Source: an uncultured Gemmatimonadales bacterium (GTDB taxonomy: Bacteria; Gemmatimonadota; Gemmatimonadetes; Gemmatimonadales; Gemmatimonadaceae). From it: DNA of 64,000 bases. Position numbers and translations under genes: made by a program. The first letter of the stretch is position 1; the number at the start of each line of letters is the position of its first letter. Positions 51,613 to 63,104 of this stretch are shown here, one piece after another. Under the pieces are notes generated by a model. That model worked only from the letters and a program-made list of their open reading frames with translations, was not told where the DNA came from and did not search any database. The stretch covers positions 3,589,248 to 3,653,247 of the forward strand of contig CAWKMU010000003.1 of NCBI GenBank assembly GCA_963850905.1, written 5' to 3'.

Positions 51613-51928
51613 GCGCTCCTCCTCGGCCCGTTGTAGGCCAACCTGATGTGGTGAGCATGCCACGCAACAGCCGGACCGCCTCCGCCGTAGGGAACGGGGT
51701 TGAGCCCATCGTCGGGTACCGCAACGAAGGACGGTGCCTCGAGACTCCCGTCGCCAGCTGCGTCGCCGTACCGCTGATGACAACGGCTAGCTGAGGTCGC
51801 CTTCGCCGGGGTTCAACCAATGGGCACCCCATTACATCGGCGCACGCCCCGTTACGATTATCTCGGCGACTGCTCACGTATATCGAGACCGACATGTCGA
51901 GTTTCTGCGAGACGAGAATGGGAGGTGC

Positions 51929-53608
51929 GTGGTGAGTATCGAAACCCTTCCGCTGCCGCCCACAACCGCGGTCCCTTTCGATCGTTTATTCCCCACGCTG
52001 ACCCCAGAGCAGATGGCGCGGATCGCAGCGCACGGCCACGTCCGGCCGAGTACCGCTGGGGAAGTGTTGGTCGAAGTGGGTGATCAAACAGTACGCTTCT
52101 TTGTCGTGACCCGAGGCAAAGCAGAGGTCGTGCGCTCGGCCAACTCGACTGACAGCGTCGCCGTCCTGGAGCCCGGCACCTTTACGGGGGAAACCAACCT
52201 GATTTCGGGGCGCCCGAGCCTCGTCCGCGTACGCGTGAGCGAGCCAGGCGAACTGATCGAGGTGGATCGCGACCACCTGGTAGCCCTCGTGCAGACCGAC
52301 AGCGAGCTCGGCGAGCTCATCATGCGGGCCTTCATCCTTCGTCGCGTCGAGCTGATCGCGCAAGGCGTGGGCGACGTCGTGCTCATCGGCTCCAGTCATT
52401 CCGCCGGCACGCTCCGCGTCCAGGAGTTCCTGACGCGCAACGGCCATCCCCACGCGTATATCGACCTCGACCGTGACGGTGGTGTCCAGGAGCTGCTGGA
52501 TCGGTTTCACGTCTCGGTCGCCGACGTGCCTGTGGTGATCTGTCGCGGCGAGCTCGTGCTGCGGAGTCCGACGAATCAGCAGATCGCCGACTGCCTCGGC
52601 TTCAACGAAGCGATCGACCAGACCCACGTGCGTGACGTGGTCATCGTCGGTGCCGGTCCTGCAGGCCTCGCGGCGGCCGTGTACGGGGCGTCGGAGGGGC
52701 TGGATGTGCTCGTGGTGGAGTCCAACGCGCCTGGGGGACAAGCTGGATCGAGCTCCCGCATCGAGAATTATCTCGGCTTCCCCACCGGCATATCAGGGCA
52801 GGAGCTCGCGGGCCGAGCCTATGCGCAGGCACAGAGGTTTGGCGCCCAGATCCTCATCACGAAGAGTGCGACCCGGCTCGCCTGCGAGAAACGGCCATAT
52901 GCGATCGATATCGACACCGGTGGATGTGTGACCGCGCGCACCGTCATCATCGCGGCTGGCGCCGAATACCGGCGACTCCCTCTGGCAAACTTGTCTCAGT
53001 TCGAGGGGGCGGGAGTGTACTACGGCGCGACGTTCGTCGAGGCGCAATTGTGCAACGGAGAAGAAGTGATGGTGGTGGGCGGGGGGAATTCGGCTGGTCA
53101 GGCGGCAGTGTTTCTCGCGCAGACCGCGAAGCGAGTCCATATCCTGGTGCGATCAGGTGGGCTCGCGGAGAGCATGTCACGCTACCTGACTCGACGAATC
53201 GAGGAGAACCCAGCGATCGTGTTGCGGACGCACGCGGAGATCGTGGCGCTCGAGGGCACTGACCATCTGGAGCGCGTGCAATGGCGGGACACCGCAACGG
53301 GCACCACTGAGACCGCGTCCATCAAACACGTCTTCGTTATGACAGGAGCCGCGCCCAACACGGGCTGGCTCGAGGGCTGCGTGGCGCTCGACTCGAGCGG
53401 ATTCGTCAATACGGGAACCGACCTGTTGCCAGAAGATCTGGCGGCAGCGCACTGGCCTCTCAGCCGGAGGCCGTACCTGCTCGAAACGAGCTTGCCTGGC
53501 GTCTTTGCGGTCGGCGATGTGCGCGGAGGTAATGTCAAACGCGTGGCATCGGCCGTCGGAGAGGGATCGATTGCCATCAGTTTCGTTCACCAGTTCTTGC
53601 GTGAGTAA
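51929..53608 (+). CDS. cNMP-binding domain + thioredoxin-reductase-like FAD oxidoreductase
   Basis: N-terminal cNMP fold (FFVVTRG, PGTFTGE). VGAGPAGLAAA, SSRIENYLGFP, GGGNSAGQAA and ETSLPGVFAVGDVR. Confidence 0.9.
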   Translation: MVSIETLPLPPTTAVPFDRLFPTLTPEQMARIAAHGHVRPSTAGEVLVEVGDQTVRFFVVTRGKAEVVRSANSTDSVAVLEPGTFTGETNLISGRPSLVRVRVSEPGELIEVDRDHLVALVQTDSELGELIMRAFILRRVELIAQGVGDVVLIGSSHSAGTLRVQEFLTRNGHPHAYIDLDRDGGVQELLDRFHVSVADVPVVICRGELVLRSPTNQQIADCLGFNEAIDQTHVRDVVIVGAGPAGLAAAVYGASEGLDVLVVESNAPGGQAGSSSRIENYLGFPTGISGQELAGRAYAQAQRFGAQILITKSATRLACEKRPYAIDIDTGGCVTARTVIIAAGAEYRRLPLANLSQFEGAGVYYGATFVEAQLCNGEEVMVVGGGNSAGQAAVFLAQTAKRVHILVRSGGLAESMSRYLTRRIEENPAIVLRTHAEIVALEGTDHLERVQWRDTATGTTETASIKHVFVMTGAAPNTGWLEGCVALDSSGFVNTGTDLLPEDLAAAHWPLSRRPYLLETSLPGVFAVGDVRGGNVKRVASAVGEGSIAISFVHQFLRE

Positions 53609-53787
53609 GAGGTCGACGGCGGCGCGGTGGTTACGCTCCACCACTCAGCAATCGGCCTGTTTGCTGACGGTATCGAGAGGAGGTCTCGCAGGGCTGGCCG
53701 CTCTTCGTCGCACGCATTCGACGACGAGTCGAGCATGCTTAGGACCATTAGTCTGTGCTCCCTACCGATCCGAATTGTAGATTTGTT

Positions 53788-53848
53788 TCTAACGTCCCAC
53801 GTCTAACGTCTAGCGTCCACCTAACGTCTAGCGCCGAGCGCGTCTAAC
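53788..53848. repeat. Degenerate heptamer repeats GTCTAAC/GTCTAGC
   Basis: About six (G)TCTA(A/G)C units immediately upstream of the tRNA-Ser fragment. Confidence 0.6.
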
Positions 53849-53871
53849 ATTTACAGCTCAGCAATCCGTTG

Positions 53872-53909
53872 GGAGGGCTGGCAGAATGGCTAATGCACCG
53901 GTCTTGAAA
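53872..53909 (+). tRNA. 5' half of tRNA-Ser(UGA), truncated at the anticodon loop (att remnant)
   Basis: GGAGGGC TG GCAGAATGGCTAATGC A CCGGT CTTGAAA gives acceptor strand, D arm, anticodon 5' strand and loop. The expected ACCGG and 3' half are absent. Confidence 0.85.
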
Positions 53910-54024
53910 TTGCCGCCCGGCTCCTGCACCTGACTGCAGTACGCTGCACTTCACTCTGAAAACGCGGCGCTAACGTGTTCGACGTTGGCGCCGTGTTGCA
54001 CATCTTTGCACCGCGTTGCGCGCG

Positions 54025-54049
54025 GATGGGACCACGGATGGGACCACGG
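54025..54049. repeat. Tandem 12-bp direct repeat, arm-type integrase binding site-like
   Basis: GGATGGGACCAC x2, about 115 bp from the tRNA-Ser fragment, preceded by roughly 10-bp-phased TGCA motifs. Confidence 0.55.
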
Positions 54050-54513
54050 GCTGCCGAGTTGGCAGAACGTCATCTGCGGCTCAAATCACCAGGCCGAGCG
54101 GGACTAGGCCGCTCCTCGAGGTGCTGAGTTTGACCGAGGGCCAGCGCGTGCAAATCAGGAACGCACACCGGAACGCGAAGGGCGTATCAGACGGCGCTCC
54201 GGATCCCTGGGAGCCTAGGGAGGCGCCTGCGGTACGGGGTAGCCTGGGTCTCTGCCAATGCGATCCTCCACCGACGCGTATAGCTCGGTGCGGCACTCGC
54301 CAGCAGCGTTCGGGTCAGAACACCACCACGCTTCAAATGTGTTATCAACGACCGACTAATGACGCCTTGGCCGTGGTGATGAGCGAGGAGCGAAAGGTGC
54401 GTGATATGGCCGTGGCGGAGCGTCCTAGAGAAACGGACCACAAACGCACCACGCCCACTGGGACGACAAAGCCTCACCGATGGGAAGTGACGGCGCGGCC
54501 TTGAGTTACACGA

Positions 54514-54560
54514 TGGAGCGGATGGGGATCGAAACCACGACCTCCTGGTTGCAAACCAGA
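54514..54560 (-). tRNA. 3' fragment of tRNA-Ala(UGC) (att remnant)
   Basis: Reverse complement TCTGG TTTGCAA CCAGG AGGTC GTGGT TTCGATC CCCAT CCGCTCC A gives anticodon arm, T arm and acceptor 3' strand. No D arm or 5' strand upstream. Confidence 0.8.
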
Positions 54561-54709
54561 ATCACGGACTACCCACTTTACGGCAACTTGACGGTTCGCT
54601 GGGGGGAACCGGGCATCGGCGCCGGACCTAACATCAAGAATGTCGGACTATGCCGGAAGAAACGGGTAATGCGTACAACAATGGAGTGGACTTGAGAATG
54701 CGTCGCGGT

Positions 54710-55222
54710 CTAAGAACGTCGCGCTTTTGACATCCTCGAGCGTTTCTTTTTGACGGGGCGTGCGCTCACAGGTATTCGCTCCGTGGGAGGTACTTGGGCT
54801 GATGCGTGGAGGACGAGGCCTTGGACGTTCGTCGGATTCAGCCAGATCGGGCCGAATCGTCCACGTGCAGTCAGGTTCGCGATCGCCTCACGCGCGAACG
54901 GCATGAGGGTCACTGCGGCGACCTGCTTTGCGTAGTCCAGTGGAGACATGTTTTCGGAGCCGGCCACCGCCGTGACAATGAGCGTCATTCGCACACGATA
55001 GTCGTAGAGTGCCGGCTGATCGGTTGCCGATGACACAGTGAGCCTTGTCAGGGCTTGCTTGCCATCAGGGGCGCTACCGAACTGTATCTCTATGTTCGCA
55101 GGCGTTGTTGGGTGGGGAGTGTTTGCCGGCAGTGCGAGCACGCCCTCTCGATGGCGGAATTGTGCCTCCTCAAGAAAGATCTGGGCGATTTGGAGGCCAG
55201 GCCCTCGCGTGGGATCCGTCAC
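54710..55222 (-). CDS. SecB-like chaperone (TAC chaperone)
   Basis: LQIAQIFLEEAQF near the N-terminus and AAVTLMPFAREAIANLTARGRFGPIWLNPTN resemble the SecB signature (LFPYAREAISxxxxRGGFPPLxLxPIN). GTG overlaps the antitoxin stop. Confidence 0.85.
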   Translation of the reverse strand: MTDPTRGPGLQIAQIFLEEAQFRHREGVLALPANTPHPTTPANIEIQFGSAPDGKQALTRLTVSSATDQPALYDYRVRMTLIVTAVAGSENMSPLDYAKQVAAVTLMPFAREAIANLTARGRFGPIWLNPTNVQGLVLHASAQVPPTERIPVSARPVKKKRSRMSKARRS

Positions 55223-55837
55223 GCTGCCATCGCCAGTGCGGGAGGCTCTTGCTCAACACGTTCTTCTTCTTCAGAGGGCACGGCGGGTTGGAACATGCCA
55301 CTTATCGTTATCGATGTCGCAAACGCGAATGTCGAGCTGCTCCACTGATTCATCGGCTGTGCGAAACAGTTGGAGATCGTGACGTCCGTGAAAAGCAGGG
55401 TGCTTACGTGGGTAAGGGAAGCGTTGCTCGGGTTAACTGGCGTTGTCATGCCGCCCCATACCACTGTGGTCGCTCCAGTCACCAGCACCGCTGGAGCGTT
55501 AACAACGGTTGCGGTCTCGACAGTCACGCCTGCGCGAGGTCGGTCCGGCGATTTGGGTGCCAACGAGATTTTCACATCTACTTCGAGATCGACCAAGAAA
55601 CGCTCAAGACGGTCATTGCTAAACCGTGCTAAACGACCCCGAAGAAGGTCAGATACGTCCGGTTGGGTTATGCTGAGGAGTTCGGCCGCCTGTCGCTGAC
55701 TCAGGCCTCGGGTTGTGATCTCGCGTTGGATAGCACGGGCCAACTGGGCCTTCGCAAGACGCACATCCGCATCTCGGCAGACCCGCGTCTTTAAAGACGT
55801 TGCCTGACCCTAGTTCCACTCGCTCTTCACTACTCAT
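55219..55837 (-). CDS. XRE/HTH_37 (HigA-like) antitoxin with ~100-aa C-terminal extension (frameshift ~55775)
   Basis: MSSEERVELGSGNVFKDAGLP then, after a one-base shift, DADVRLAKAQL..GLSQRQAAELLSITQPDVSDLLRGRLARFSNDRL. Tail ends ALAMAA. Confidence 0.85.
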
Positions 55838-56214
55838 ATAGCCCCTCGCGTCGCCGGATACCTACCTGCGTAGTCTTTCTTCGCGGCCTGGGATCTTCGT
55901 CGGATGCGGTCCAAATCTTCGTTTGGCGTACGCCTTCCCGATTTGGATTTTTTCATGAAGGCTGCCAAGAGGTACGTGCACCTCGGAAAGGCAAGATAGG
56001 CAGCGCGGTACGTATCGCCGCCGGCGTTCTCGGACAGCTTCATCACTTCGCTAGGTAGCCCTTCTCCGAAGTGTTTTGCGCCAATCGGCCGATCGCCATA
56101 CTGGACGTCCAAAAGAGCCTTTCCGAAGACGTCTTTAACGTCGTCAGGCAGGCTCTGGAGTTCCCTCTTGCTGTTTCCAATGAATAGGAGAGGCTTCCTT
56201 TCGGGACGATCCAC
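55834..56214 (-). CDS. RelE/ParE-superfamily toxin (Gp49/DUF891, HigB-like)
   Basis: KPLLFIGNSKREL..FGKALLDVQYG..GDTYRAAY..YLLAAFMKKSKSG..TP..DL..IRRR. ATGA overlap with the antitoxin. Confidence 0.9.
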   Translation of the reverse strand: MDRPERKPLLFIGNSKRELQSLPDDVKDVFGKALLDVQYGDRPIGAKHFGEGLPSEVMKLSENAGGDTYRAAYLAFPRCTYLLAAFMKKSKSGRRTPNEDLDRIRRRSQAAKKDYAGRYPATRGAI

Positions 56215-56219
56215 GGTTC

Positions 56220-56248
56220 ATTATAGCAACTCTGCTATGTGCTTACAA
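56220..56248 (-). promoter_or_regulatory. TAC operon promoter with palindromic operator, leaderless start
   Basis: TTGTAA (56248-56243), 17 nt, TATAAT (56225-56220) with extended TGn, then 5 nt to GTG. ATAGCA-ACTC-TGCTAT palindrome at 56223-56238. Confidence 0.75.
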
Positions 56249-56290
56249 ACTAACAGGTAGCAACGTTTTTCGACAGCATCTGAGGCCAGA

Positions 56291-56908
56291 ATGGGGAAAA
56301 AGAAGGCTGCCAAGCGGGGGCGTGGTGTCACAGCCGGGGTCATTACTCTGAGCCCGCGTGCATCGTTGAAAGTGATTGCGCCCGACGGGCAGGAGGCGAC
56401 AATCACAGCCACCGCGGCGATCGCCCTACAAGATGCAGCGGAGCATGTCGTCAAGACCCTCATTGCGCAAATTCGCCAATGCCTTGGCGCCGGCATGATT
56501 CAGATTGCGGTACTGGCGACCCTCGCGCTTCCCGACATGTGCGCTGCATCGGAGCACGCGGATGGAACAGCGACCGGCGCGCGATATAAGGCTTGGGTCG
56601 ACGCCCATGTCGCGCCCAAATACGTGGATAGCAATGGGAAGAAGACTCTTGGCGGTGCTGAGCTGTGGGCGCTTCGCTGTGCCATCGCGCATCAGATGAG
56701 GCTGACACATCCGGGGCTAGGCTACACAACTATTTGGTTTTCGAACAAGCACAAGGTGGTCGAGAATGGCGCGCTGTATTTGTCGGCGAGCATATTCTGC
56801 GAGGACATTCTTACGGCCGTCGAGAACTGGCTTCTGACATCCCGCGGCAACACCACGATCGTGACCAATCTTGCATCCCTTTCTCGGTTCCGTGTGGAAT
56901 TGAGTTAA
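56291..56908 (+). CDS. Hypothetical protein with HEPN-like R-x4-H motif
   Basis: LATLALPDMCAA..RYKAWVD..ELWALRCAIAHQ. Mostly helical. Confidence 0.65.
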   Translation: MGKKKAAKRGRGVTAGVITLSPRASLKVIAPDGQEATITATAAIALQDAAEHVVKTLIAQIRQCLGAGMIQIAVLATLALPDMCAASEHADGTATGARYKAWVDAHVAPKYVDSNGKKTLGGAELWALRCAIAHQMRLTHPGLGYTTIWFSNKHKVVENGALYLSASIFCEDILTAVENWLLTSRGNTTIVTNLASLSRFRVELS

Positions 56909-56924
56909 GCCAAGCCGTCCTGAC

Positions 56925-57308
56925 TCAAGCCCGTTCGCTGTTTATCAGGTAACGCCGGACATCTGACAGCCGGTAGCGACTCTCGCCGCCGACCGTCAAA
57001 CTTCGAATCCCGAGGTGTCTAATCCTCGCCTGCGAGACCCGCAGAATCGCCGCCACTTCATGCGGCGTGAGCAGCGGCTCAATGTACCAATCAGTGCCCT
57101 CATCGCGCTTACCGTAAATCGGATCCGGGTCCGCCTCCATCAGCAGCGATGCGGGGATCGACCCGACTTTCGCCAATAAGCTCCGCGCGCGTGAGACGGC
57201 GTCCGTTGCCGTCCGGATCTCCTTCGCCAAGTCAGCAGCGATTGGTCGTGGCAGGTCGGCTGACGGTGCCTCCCTCAGCGCAGGAGGTTGCGCGGTTCCC
57301 GGCCGCAA
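56925..57308 (-). CDS. Possible excisionase-like HTH (HTH_17) protein or remnant
   Basis: C-terminus LLTPHEVAAILRVS..IR..VGGESRYRLSDVRRYL. Start uncertain. Confidence 0.55.
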   Translation of the reverse strand: MRPGTAQPPALREAPSADLPRPIAADLAKEIRTATDAVSRARSLLAKVGSIPASLLMEADPDPIYGKRDEGTDWYIEPLLTPHEVAAILRVSQARIRHLGIRSLTVGGESRYRLSDVRRYLINSERA

Positions 57309-57420
57309 CGCGATGACCGCGTCCCAGGAGAGTTCAGACCCCTTCGAATGTCATTTGCGCGTAACACGCACGCCGGCGGGCGATATGACCACTTTGTACG
57401 GTTGGTCGCCCAAGACAACC

Positions 57421-58020
57421 TCACGGGCAACCGGCTTGTCGAGCCGAGTGGTCATTGGCGGATGGCTGGCAGTAAACGAGGACTAGCGCGGCATCACCAC
57501 CCGCGCCGGTATGGCTCCGGTCCTTTGGGACGCTGGGTTCGGGCAGCAGGGGGTCCATCCGGTCCGCGTATCGTTCGACCCACGAGAGCCAGCTGCACAC
57601 CTTTTCCTGCGCCTCGGGATCGGTCACGCGATCGAGTGCCGGTTCGCGTCAGCGACGTACGCCCGGATCTCGGCAGCCGCGCTCCACTCCTTCATCACCT
57701 GCTCGAGTGCGCGCACGCGACGCGCGCGCTGCTGGCGCTCGTGATCTTGTCGCGCTTGTTCCTCCTGCTCGGCGCGCCACTGACGCTCCCACTCCTCCCG
57801 TTCCTGCCGCTGCCTCTTGACCGCCTCACTTGCCGCAACGAGACCCACGACGAATGCGTTGAGGCTGTGGTCGACCCGTTGCTTCTTGCCGTCGGACCAG
57901 ACGCAGCGGATGCCGAGCGAGCTGTCCTCAATGCGGAGCGTGTACTGTCCGAGATGAGTTCGCGCCGCGGTTGTGGGGGCGGCGGCCTTCGCGGTGTATT
58001 CGAAGGGCGGGAAAGCTCGC
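57421..58020 (-). pseudogene. C-terminal remnant of a coiled-coil hypothetical protein typical of integrative elements
   Basis: FEY..TLRIED..VWSDGKKQRVD..EWERQWRAEQEE..WSAAAEIRAYV / WLSWVERYADRMDPL. No start codon, one frameshift. Confidence 0.55.
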
Positions 58021-59708
58021 GTCCGGCGGGTGGGGCGAGCGGGAGGGTCAGCGTAAAATGCGAGCCGACGCCGGCGCGGCTCGACGCGACGAGGTCACCC
58101 TTCATGCCGCGAGCGCGTTGGCGACTGATGGACAGTCCTAGGCCGGAGCCTTGTTGTGGACGCGACAGCCTGCGCTCGAGCTGTACAAAAGGTTCGAAGA
58201 TCGCTTCGAGTTGATCCTCTGGGATGCCGATGCCGGTGTCGCGCACGCTGATCCACGCCTGGTCGCCATCGTGCCCACTCGTCACCTCGATCTCTCCCCC
58301 GGCGCCAGTGGCCTTGACGGCGTTGGAGAGAAGGTTGAGAAGAATTTGCTCCACTTTGAGACGATCGCCGAGCGCGATGACGCGAGGTGTCTCGTGAGGA
58401 GTCCGCAGCTCGAGACCTTTGGCCCGCGCTTGGGGTGCGATCATGGGGACGACCGCCTCCACGAGGGTCGGAAAAGAGATCGGCCCACAATTGTACGCGA
58501 TTTGTCCGACTTCGATTCGACTGAAGTCGAGAATGTCATTGATGACATTCAGGAGATGCGCCTGGCTGCGCTGAATGCGTTCCAGGTGTTGCACCTGTAG
58601 AGGGGGTCACAGGGCCGCTCACGCCGAGTTGCAGGAGCTCCGCGTAGCCGGCAATGGCGTTGAGCGGCGTGCGGAGCTCATGCGACATGGCGGCAAGCAA
58701 TTCCCCTTTTGCTCGGCTGGCCGCCTCCGCCTGCGCACTCCGCGTTTCGAGCTCCGTCGCTGACGCTCGGAGTCGGTCGGCGAGCGCCCGAAGGTCTTCA
58801 CTGCGCGCTTCTGCGGCGGCGCGTGCCGCCCCCTCCTCAGCAATGCGCCGGGCGTCCGCCAGCATGCGTTCAACCGCTGCTTGCTGCTCGGTCAGATCGC
58901 GAGTGACCTTCGCGAAGCCTGTCAGCGTGTTGCGCGCATCGCGGACCGCGGTGATGACCACGCGGGCCCAAAAGAGCGATCCGTCCTTTCGGACGCGCCA
59001 GCCCTCTTCCTTGTACTCGCCGGTCTCCGTGGCAATCACCAGCTCGCGCGCGGGTTTGCCGTTGGCGACATCGGCTTCCGGGTAGAAGACAGAGAAGTGC
59101 TTGCCAATGATCTCGGCGGCGGTGTATCCCTTGATCCGCTGCGCCCCTTCGTTCCAGGTGGCGATGTGGCCCGTGGGGTCGAGCATGAAGATGGCGTATA
59201 CCTGCACGGACTGGACAAGAAGGCGGAATCGCTCTTCGCTACGACGGACGGATTCGGTCGCCTCGCGCTGCTGGGTCAGGTCGCGCGTCACCTTGGCGAA
59301 CCCGACCAGATTGCCTTCGTCATCTCGCAAAGCAGTGATCACGACATTCGCCCAAAAGCGTGAGCCGTCCTTGCGGATGCGCCAGCCATCGTCCTCAATG
59401 TGACCCATTGTCGCAGCGAGCTCGAGCAGACATGCCGGCTTCCCTGCCGCGATGTCATCCTGCGGGTAGAGCACGGAGAAGTGCTGTCCCAGGATCTCTT
59501 CTGTCGTGTATCCCTTGAGACGTTCGGCGCCACTGTTCCACGTCAGGATGTGCCCGCGGGGATCGAGGGCGAAGATCGCGTACTCGGTCACGCGCGCGAC
59601 CAACAACTCGTGAAGATCTACCGCGTGGGCGGCGGCGCCCTCAGGCGCAGGCACCTTGATCTTGCCGGGCGCTGGCGGAGTGAATGTCACGCTGTGCTCC
59701 TCCCTCAC
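57695..59708 (-). CDS. PAS-PAS sensor histidine kinase (frameshift ~58595; C-terminus runs into the remnant gene)
   Basis: Two PAS/PAC repeats (WNxGAxRxKGY, RKDGSxFWA), MSHELRTPLNAI, LLNLLSNAVK, DTGIGI, IFEPF and GLGLSI. Confidence 0.9.
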
Positions 59709-61199: not shown

Positions 61200-62542
61200 A
61201 TGCCGGCGCTGCCAGAATCAATCAAACTTACGGCCGAAGGCGAGTCGCCCCCGTCCGACCCGCATCCGCCAGACACGCGTGTCGTCGGCACCAGCGCGGT
61301 CGCGCGCGCGCTCAGGGTCCTTGGGCCTGGACTTATTACGGGCGCAGCCGATGATGATCCCTCCGGAATCGCCACGTACTCGCAAGCGGGCGCATCCTTT
61401 GGCTACGGTCTCCTCTGGACGGCGCTCCTCACGTTTCCGCTTATCGTGGCCGTGCAGCTCATGTGTGCGCGCGTCGGCGAAGTCGCGGATCGCGGGCTGG
61501 CCAGTGTGCTGCGCAAACACTACCCGGCGTGGGTGCTATGGGTCGCGTGCGGTCTGCTCACCGTGGCCAATACCGTCAACATCGGCGCAGATCTCGGCGC
61601 AATGGCCGCCGGCGGCCACCTCATCACCGGCGTGCGGTCGATCTGGTTCCTTGCGCCGTTCGCGATCGCGATGCTCCTGGTGGTATCGTTCACGTCCAAC
61701 GCACAGGTCAGCGCGATCTTCAAGTGGCTGACACTCAGCTTGTTTGCGTACGTCGGCGCGGCGTTCCTCGCGCGGCCGGACTGGGGGACCGTGCTGCTCC
61801 GCACCGCGGTGCCACACGTGCAGCAGAGTCACGACTATGTGCTCACCGTCGTGGCGATTCTGGGCACGACGATCTCGCCGTACCTCTTCTTCTGGCAGGC
61901 CGCATCCTCCGCCGAAGAGCGGGATGCGCGAGGCCACGATCGGCGGCCGAGCGCCGCGCGCGGTGGAGCGAGAGCTACGGACCGTCCGAGCCGATGTCGT
62001 GGTGGGGATGTTCTTCTCCAACCTCATCATGTATTTCATCATTCTGACAGCTGGCGCGACGCTGCACGGGGTGCAGGCCAACATCGAGACGGCTGAGCAA
62101 GCAGCGGCAGCGCTACGCCCGCTGGCCGGACCGGCCGCGGAATTCCTCTTCGCTGCGGGGTTGATCGGTACGGGGTTGCTGGGCGTCCCGCTACTGGCTG
62201 GGTCCGCGGCGTATGCGCTCGCGGAGGCTGGTGCGTGGCGTCGCGGCATGGACAAGACGCCGCGAACGGCGGGACGGTTCTATGCGGTCTTCGCAGTTGC
62301 GCTCTTGATCGGTACGGTCATCGACCTCCTGGGAGTCAACCCCATCCCGGCTGCTGTTTTGGTCTGCAGTCATCAACGGCCTGCTCGCCCCACCGCTCAT
62401 CGTCATCATCCTCTTCGTCTGCAACAACGCCACCATCATGGGCCCGTATCAGAAGGGTCGAGCGATGAACGTCCTCGGCATTCTGGCGGCGGTCATCATG
62501 ACTGTCGCTGCCGTCGCACTGGTCGCGAGTTGGATCGTGTGA
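61200..62542 (+). CDS. NRAMP-related divalent metal transporter (frameshifts ~61935 and ~62345)
   Basis: LGPGLITGAADDDPSGIATYSQAGA, NIGADL, GTTISPYLFFWQA, GLIGTGLL, and LLFWSAVING. Confidence 0.88.
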
Positions 62543-63104
62543 GCCAAAGGATCGGGGCAGCTACCCGTCGGCACACCCGCATCATCCCACGGAGAAGGTG
62601 CACACTGTTTTTGCGGGCACAGGGGTCATGGTCCCAATCGTCGATCGTACGTGTCTCCCGGTTTGGCAATCGGCGCGACCACGGTCACTCCGTTCATCGC
62701 TGTCCTTGGGATGCCAACCTCGACCCGCGTCACCCTGCGGCCGTTCAGTACGAATGACCAACAGGACTGACCGACACGGCGCATCGGCTTAGCCCGCCCC
62801 AAACTCAATGCGGAGATAACTCTCAATGCCCCAGCGAAGCAGCGGTCACGGACCGCGCTTCGCCGCCCAGGCCCCATATCGTACAATCCAGGCTGCATCA
62901 ATGTCGACATGTCGTAGCGTACTATCAATGGCGGCGGAGCCCGCACGTCGCCGCCGCAGTCGGCCCGCAGCGTTTCGTCGCGGTGATACGCTCTGTTTCC
63001 TGAGGAGCGTGCCAACTCGTACACAACTGCAAATGCCGTGTGGTCTTTCCCCGGTTTCGTAGACACCTCAGTGAGCCCGATTATGTTCGGGCGGGAGGTG
63101 TCTC

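Follow-up and report, generated by a model that had tools for sequence, protein, structure and literature searches.

Is the three-gene operon in a 64,000-nucleotide stretch of DNA from an uncultured Gemmatimonadales bacterium (hereafter the window) a genuine toxin-antitoxin-chaperone (TAC) system, is it intact in the living cell, and against what would it act? TACs, defined here as toxin, antitoxin and chaperone in one operon, are sparsely spread over seven phyla, and at least 75% of them are described as acquired by transfer (PMC3581621). A first-pass annotation, made from the letters alone, had placed three translationally coupled genes at 54710..56248. They are present as placed, in the order toxin, antitoxin and chaperone on the minus strand, and at each junction the stop and start codons overlap by 4 nt (ATGA, GTGA). 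An HMM search put all three products over the cut-off of the families proposed for them (Table 1). PF05973 and PF13744 together correspond to the combination of a RelE-superfamily Gp49/HigB toxin with an XRE-type antitoxin that marks the HigBAC subtype and, judged by its sequence, the locus is a genuine HigBAC-type TAC. An intact orthologous triad (L002) was found in another genome of the same genus, G003, adjoining tRNA-Leu instead of the tRNA fragments seen here.

Table 1. Features of the operon and of the element around it (window positions; C3 is the contig that holds the window, C4 a second contig of the same assembly).
Feature	Position	Strand	Basis
tRNA-Ser(TGA) 5' fragment, left attachment site	53872..53909	+	38 nt exact to intact gene C4:42594-42678
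Direct repeat GGGACCACG-GAT-GGGACCACG, candidate integrase arm site	54028..54048	+	21-mer, two genome copies
tRNA-Ala(TGC) 3' fragment	54513..54559	-	46/47 to intact gene, C3:2322080-2322126
SecB-like chaperone, 170 aa	54710..55222	-	PF02556 (SecB) 30.1 bits, cut-off 26
HTH_37/XRE antitoxin, 205 aa once one extra base is skipped	55219..55837	-	PF13744 (HTH_37) E 4e-20
Gp49/HigB-type toxin, 126 aa, predicted ribosome-dependent mRNase	55834..56214	-	PF05973 (Gp49) E 7e-12
Sigma-70-like promoter TTGTAA-17-TATAAT with TG extension	56220..56248	-	promoter scan
Palindrome ATAGCA-N4-TGCTAT, overlaps -10 element; candidate antitoxin operator	56223..56238	.	sequence
Insertion-sequence repeat linking C3 to C4	63038..64000	.	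99.6% to C4:32669-33632

The chaperone gene is the sole PF02556 match in this genome, which is 82% complete. The earlier reading depended on a SecB fold of the third ORF, and besides the Pfam match an AlphaFold model from a 15-row alignment (pLDDT 88.7) bears this out. Its top Foldseek matches were E. coli SecB (1qyn, E 1e-7) and the Rv1957-ChAD complex (5mtw, E 1.6e-6), with a probability of 1.00 for both of these and for H. influenzae SecB. A housekeeping SecB was considered and rejected, the protein scoring 23.1 bits against a cut-off of 102.8 for the NCBIfam equivalog TIGR00809 and its gene overlapping that of the antitoxin. The orthologous chaperone in G003 is 60% identical.

The toxin has 135 homologues at E<=1e-10. 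It keeps all 26 columns that are invariant in an alignment of 35 sequences (itself included) and departs conservatively at three of the 21 near-invariant ones; in addition, it carries Ala84 where the 34 other relatives have Asp or His, together with a one-residue gap. Its single-sequence structure model was poor (pLDDT 44) and was not taken into the fold search. Searches of PDB sequences with the protein and with the 35-row profile gave no real match to any solved structure, and we therefore place the toxin, on sequence grounds, in a distant Gp49 subfamily. The Gp49/DUF891 toxin had been put forward as what makes this operon a variant. This does not hold against the published record, where the founding TAC pair is likened to the gp49-gp48 locus (PMC3581621), its toxin is called Gp49-like (PMC9098466) and PF05973 includes HigB1 as well as HigB from an E. 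coli TAC (PMC11980606). Since all three sources tie TAC toxins to Gp49/PF05973, a toxin of this kind is no new feature of a TAC. Against an active toxin here stands that two of the three HigB-like toxins of one species are described as non-toxic (PMC9098466).

The antitoxin carries a C-terminal extension of about 93-95 aa with seven aromatics in 93 aa, 37% V/T/I/S and the end ALAMAA, a candidate ChAD with a degron-like Ala-Ala end. Counted from the ERFL motif, 124 residues follow here, 132 in the G003 orthologue and 131 in a third long-tailed antitoxin of 212 aa (P0014), which probably forms one locus with the chaperone P0005. Among 118 near relatives examined, 115 have the motif and 94 of these continue for 31 residues (longest 103); the extension is thus absent from most homologues of the chaperone-less type (124 vs 31 residues). 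Over the folded part, identity to the nearest relatives is 55-70%. An AA end occurs in only two of the 118, and the two other long-tailed proteins end in KLARAA (G003) and KVERAA (P0014). Among the genes upstream of related chaperones the end is AA, VA or IA in 23/40 and Ala in 28/40, in a set of mechanically chosen ORFs that includes this locus and non-independent kin. The three long tails align poorly, as do published ChADs (PMC5105189), and a ChAD of 96 aa with aromatic anchors has been published (bioRxiv 2024.02.24.581848). TAC antitoxins ending in VA or (L)AA are reported to be removed by ClpXP (bioRxiv 2024.02.24.581848; PMC11618068); family searches found both ClpX and ClpP encoded in this genome. 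A second HTH_37 gene able to neutralise the toxin in trans was not found in the genome.

The operon had also been credited with its own promoter and a palindromic operator. The palindrome stands: it occurs once in the whole genome and lies within 17 consecutive bases that are identical in the orthologous locus of G003, whose flanks diverge. The promoter-like site was found as well, at the level expected by chance (1 site vs 0.8 +/- 0.9 in shuffles). The operon mRNA is probably leaderless, since the predicted toxin start lies only 6 nt downstream of this site. Neither a terminator scan nor an Rfam search of 53500-58000 gave a match. As remarked in the first-pass annotation, the operon is visibly AT-rich, with 57.2% GC vs 65.6% for the genome; only 0.18% of 7304 same-size windows of the contig are equally low.

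As assembled, the antitoxin gene is 619 nt long, and translation from its ATG would end after 62 aa. A single surplus base at 55774-55777, close to where an indel had been suspected, parts the N-terminal 20-21 codons from a remainder of 184 aa, while the G003 orthologue aligns without it and its frame is continuous. A check against the reads had been proposed for this site. Contigs were examined for four of the 11 runs listed and none spans 55774, so that the site itself stayed uncovered; at nearby 54697, short-read contigs from three of the four runs, near-identical otherwise, are without one base that is present in the assembly. Over 25,030 bases aligned to G003, nine isolated non-triplet gaps are extra bases here (seven of them single) and two are missing bases. 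Six single-base insertions relative to G003 cluster in a single 1-kb stretch that covers two adjacent ribosomal-protein genes (C3:210620-211629 of this assembly); five lie in what we take, from the translation, to be the gene of ribosomal protein L1, the sixth in its neighbour. Because insertions occur in ribosomal-protein genes, frameshifts in this assembly are not to be trusted as read. A protein-level frameshift count gave 8/51 orthologues vs 3/74 in its reverse control and is too noisy, and too confounded by antisense and fused ORFs, to be relied on. With an orthologue that has no such base, contigs without the base at 54697 and insertions in ribosomal-protein genes, we consider it likely that the extra base in the antitoxin is an assembly error. 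Two further genes of the island are split, a PAS-histidine kinase inside its HisKA domain (57695-59708) and an Nramp transporter between profile positions 190 and 196 (61200-62757), which fits either assembly error or decay.

The setting of the operon is that of a mobile element. The tRNA-Ser(TGA) fragment in the window had been passed over in the first-pass annotation. The intact tRNA-Ser(TGA) gene on C4 is preceded by a tyrosine integrase (PF00589) and a MobA/VirD2 relaxase (PF03432), and the 21-mer repeat has its only other genome copy at C4:42519, each copy just inside one tRNA-Ser site. The window ends with contig C3, within an insertion-sequence repeat; the end of C3 and the start of C4 match the internal insertion-sequence copy of C4 at 600/600 bases, from which we infer that C3 and C4 join through the repeated insertion sequence and that the rest of the element is located on C4. 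With tRNA-derived direct repeats, a tyrosine integrase beside one att site and a relaxase present, the operon, as read from these sequences, rides an integrative mobilisable element that has tRNA-Ser(TGA) repeats at its two ends, and the horizontal acquisition proposed at first is borne out. The element would measure about 53 kb, or about 19 kb if C3 joins the internal insertion-sequence copy; given the tRNA-Ser repeats and the C3-C4 join, the operon would therefore lie 800 bp inside its left end. In a search for the empty site, the left flank (51900-53850) was unmatched at the tRNA-Ser(TGA) loci of nine same-genus genomes beyond about 20 bases before the tRNA, and none of the nine showed such a site.

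The boundary had originally been sought in a tRNA-Ala att scar about 150 bp from the operon. The fragment is real and lies 151 bp from the chaperone stop; as the boundary of the carrying element it is less likely, with the intact gene 1.3 Mb off on the opposite strand, because the tRNA-Ser repeats enclose integrase, relaxase and the matching arm-like repeats. Probably it is what remains of a different element that lies inside the island. A second partial tRNA-Ala copy lies at C3:2322309-2322399, 200 bp past the intact gene, and its flank resembles window 54537-54626 at 77%; it is a remnant of an element family that uses tRNA-Ala. ARAGORN found no intact tRNA within the window. Divergent from the operon and 77 bp from the toxin start, a 205-aa gene (56291-56908, plus strand) without Pfam match gives a product similar to PHROG 18591, a family of unknown function (E 6e-22). 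Its R-x4-H motif (LRCAIAH) presumably recalls HEPN nucleases. The adjoining 56925-57848 (minus strand) holds an HTH_17/excisionase-like ORF (weak, E 0.0025) and short fragments, in part resembling C4:143629-143790; these are typical mobile-element remnants. On the other side, an imperfect heptamer repeat (CTAACGT/CCAACGT/CTAGCGT) at 53779-53853 directly precedes the tRNA-Ser fragment and belongs to a dispersed repeat family, similar tracts with a common leader being found at more than 25 other sites of C3.

Taken together, the locus is probably a HigBAC-type module that is intact in the living cell and travels as cargo of an integrative mobilisable element located at tRNA-Ser(TGA). By analogy with published TACs, toxin, antitoxin and chaperone would be co-translated, and a chaperone tetramer would bind the aromatic-rich antitoxin tail so that the antitoxin stays folded. 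The antitoxin would bind the Gp49 mRNase and, through the palindrome, act as repressor of the promoter. A competing substrate that titrates the chaperone would let ClpXP read the C-terminal Ala-Ala and degrade the antitoxin; the freed toxin would then cleave ribosome-bound mRNA and translation would halt. As the competitor we have a modest preference for a phage structural protein. For the role of the module we lean, if slightly, towards phage defence, because E. coli HigBAC and CmdTAC respond to a competing tail or capsid protein of a phage (bioRxiv 2024.02.24.581848; PMC11618068) and MqsRAC inhibits phage T2 (PMC10783111); the main rival is a role in element stabilisation or stress response.

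In that rival role, a working TAC would serve to stabilise the mobile element or to respond to proteotoxic stress and not to phages, the toxin being freed by element loss or by chaperone overload. That the operon sits so near one end of a mobilisable element, just inside its left att site, agrees with this, as do the two-gene Gp49-HTH_37 pair known as a passenger of Tn3 transposons (PMC7157771) and the description of the founding TAC as stress-induced (PMC3581621). PADLOC, named earlier as a test of the defence reading, also points this way, since it returned no meaningful match for toxin, antitoxin or chaperone and weak HTH matches only. However, the E. coli TACs that have been tested with phages (HigBAC, CmdTAC, MqsRAC) protect, and both roles may coexist; we regard a purely stabilising or stress-related function as possible, not as probable. 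A SecB-like gene that serves export in general and lies by chance behind an ordinary two-gene toxin-antitoxin pair could be argued from the absence of a second SecB-family match in the genome and from the best Foldseek matches of its product, which are housekeeping SecB proteins. Such a chance arrangement is very improbable in view of the 4-nt overlap with a tailed antitoxin, the restriction of chaperone relatives to just 23/401 genomes of the phylum and a gene directly upstream at 40/44 distinct loci, mostly antitoxin-like and with a tail.

The state of the module leads to two further explanations, both of which take the extra base as real. If the TAC has decayed, the antitoxin would be a pseudogene, and a weak or dead toxin would explain why the cell lives; the site of the extra base lies outside all read-derived contigs of the four runs, two more island genes (HisKA and Nramp domains) are split, and the toxin shows the atypical Ala84 and the gap. 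Yet the toxin retains every invariant position with conservative change at 3/21 near-invariant ones, promoter, palindrome, overlaps and chaperone are all intact, and the same type of insertion occurs in ribosomal-protein genes and at 54697 of the assembly, so that we hold decay to be rather unlikely. Alternatively, the extra base could be regulatory, with the antitoxin arising through +1 frameshifting or through a restart of translation at the in-frame GTG 55764 beyond the break. We give this hardly any credence, as the orthologue is continuous, the break has no homopolymer, GTG 55764 has no Shine-Dalgarno-like motif upstream and re-initiation would cost the protein its first 24 residues and, with them, the conserved SGNVF motif. 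An intact HigBAC-type module remains the preferred reading.

How does this module compare with the TACs already described? Close by description is HigBAC of E. coli NT1F31 (Mets et al., bioRxiv 2024.02.24.581848), with the same gene order, a location on a mobile element, a HigB toxin in PF05973 (PMC11980606) and a ChAD of 96 aa with spaced aromatics. In contrast to the antitoxin here, which ends in Ala-Ala, its HigA ends in Leu-Pro and is described as ClpXP-independent; moreover, it resides on a prophage and is triggered by lambda gpV, whereas the present operon lies on an integrative mobilisable element. The founding TAC, HigB1-HigA1-Rv1957 of M. tuberculosis, likewise combines a Gp49-like RelE-superfamily toxin and a SecB-fold chaperone (5mtw, 17% identity) with an XRE antitoxin that has a C-terminal extension and an aliphatic C-terminal degron, but its ChAD is about 45 aa long (PMC5105189) vs about 93 aa here. 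E. coli CmdTAC (PMC11618068) shares the (L)AA antitoxin end as a ClpXP signal and a dedicated SecB-like chaperone as sensor; its toxin ADP-ribosylates mRNA and has no relation to Gp49, and CmdA is, by description, without HTH_37. Finally, two-gene Gp49-HTH_37 modules of Tn3 transposons have the same Pfam families and the toxin-first order, but lack the tail, with no chaperone among the components listed for them (PMC7157771); the tail-less relatives were compared here as protein sequences.

A search of largely open-access main texts found no publication that joins Gemmatimonad, toxin-antitoxin and SecB, in agreement with the earlier statement that none was known to be characterised in this lineage. 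The available parts of PMC6504116 and PMC13069673 hold nothing on this system. New here are the host phylum and the Gp49-HTH_37 subfamily within a TAC. The locus thus adds one phylum and one toxin-antitoxin subfamily to a system known as sporadic, mobile and repeatedly assembled, and chaperones are described as repeatedly and independently paired with toxin-antitoxin families (PMC3581621). It offers a clean natural case of chaperone addiction added to a two-gene toxin-antitoxin pair, with close tail-less relatives for comparison, as well as a new candidate for a phage sensor, in a soil lineage that is abundant and for the most part uncultured.

The relatives of the chaperone are scattered. They were found in 7/61 related genomes and, by profile search, in the 23/401 genomes of the phylum noted above, this genome counted in both, and all five named records closest to the chaperone are Gemmatimonadota assemblies. 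Of 51 chaperone loci, seven were duplicates, leaving 44 distinct ones. The 40 with an upstream same-strand ORF exclude one housekeeping-type SecB, two loci cut by contig ends and one solitary phage gene. Related chaperones are paired with differing toxin-antitoxin families: in a tree of 43 chaperones, with labels assigned partly by eye, the window's chaperone groups with its orthologue and then with a chaperone behind an MqsA-like HTH antitoxin (support 100/96), in line with the published modularity of TACs.

At seven loci of the Gemmatimonadota group (L004 (=L066), L005, L007, L069, L072, L073 and L074), sorted by eye, a small PemK/MazF-like gene is followed by a gene of about 240-280 aa and a SecB-like gene. 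The middle gene is without Pfam match and has an AA end in 5/7; it is split at L005, and the L073 and L069 versions share 40% identity over 144 aa. The small gene is not clear at L074. One small protein tested in the ESM Atlas gave 0.94 to PemK/MazF clusters, and Pfam PemK was weak in two of five tested (E 0.15, 0.24). No PemK-type TAC appeared in the texts examined, that of the Mets preprint (bioRxiv 2024.02.24.581848) among them, and these triads are possibly an undescribed TAC class. They would matter more than the present locus, because the papers examined mention, as TAC pairs, only HigBA, MqsRA, HicAB, CmdTA and some that are unclassified.

On a viral contig (L048:4998-5453), a SecB-like gene from the clade of the window's chaperone stands by itself; it directly follows head genes (terminase, portal-like and Mu F-like) and has no toxin-antitoxin pair upstream. 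It may be a relic, or a decoy used in counter-defence; phiCD119 is a published case of a phage with a solitary SecB (PMC3581621). In its widest and most tentative form, our reading is that the operon actively defends against phages and arose when a normally two-gene Gp49-HTH_37 pair captured a tail-plus-chaperone cassette and so became dependent on the chaperone. It would belong to an unreported radiation of Gemmatimonadota TACs that swap chaperones among Gp49/RelE-XRE, MqsRA-like and new PemK/MazF-like toxins, the same-clade chaperone alone in a phage being possibly counter-defence. We give this full scenario as a speculative one.

Three further loci deserve mention. The housekeeping-type SecB (L084) occurs in one genome of the phylum (G121), on a very long branch and with atypical composition, and may be binning contamination. 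One related TAC adjoins an Xre/MbcA/ParS-type antitoxin gene (L010:1881-3047), and another adjoins a type I restriction subunit (L011:4899-7214), the only defence gene noticed beside a relative.
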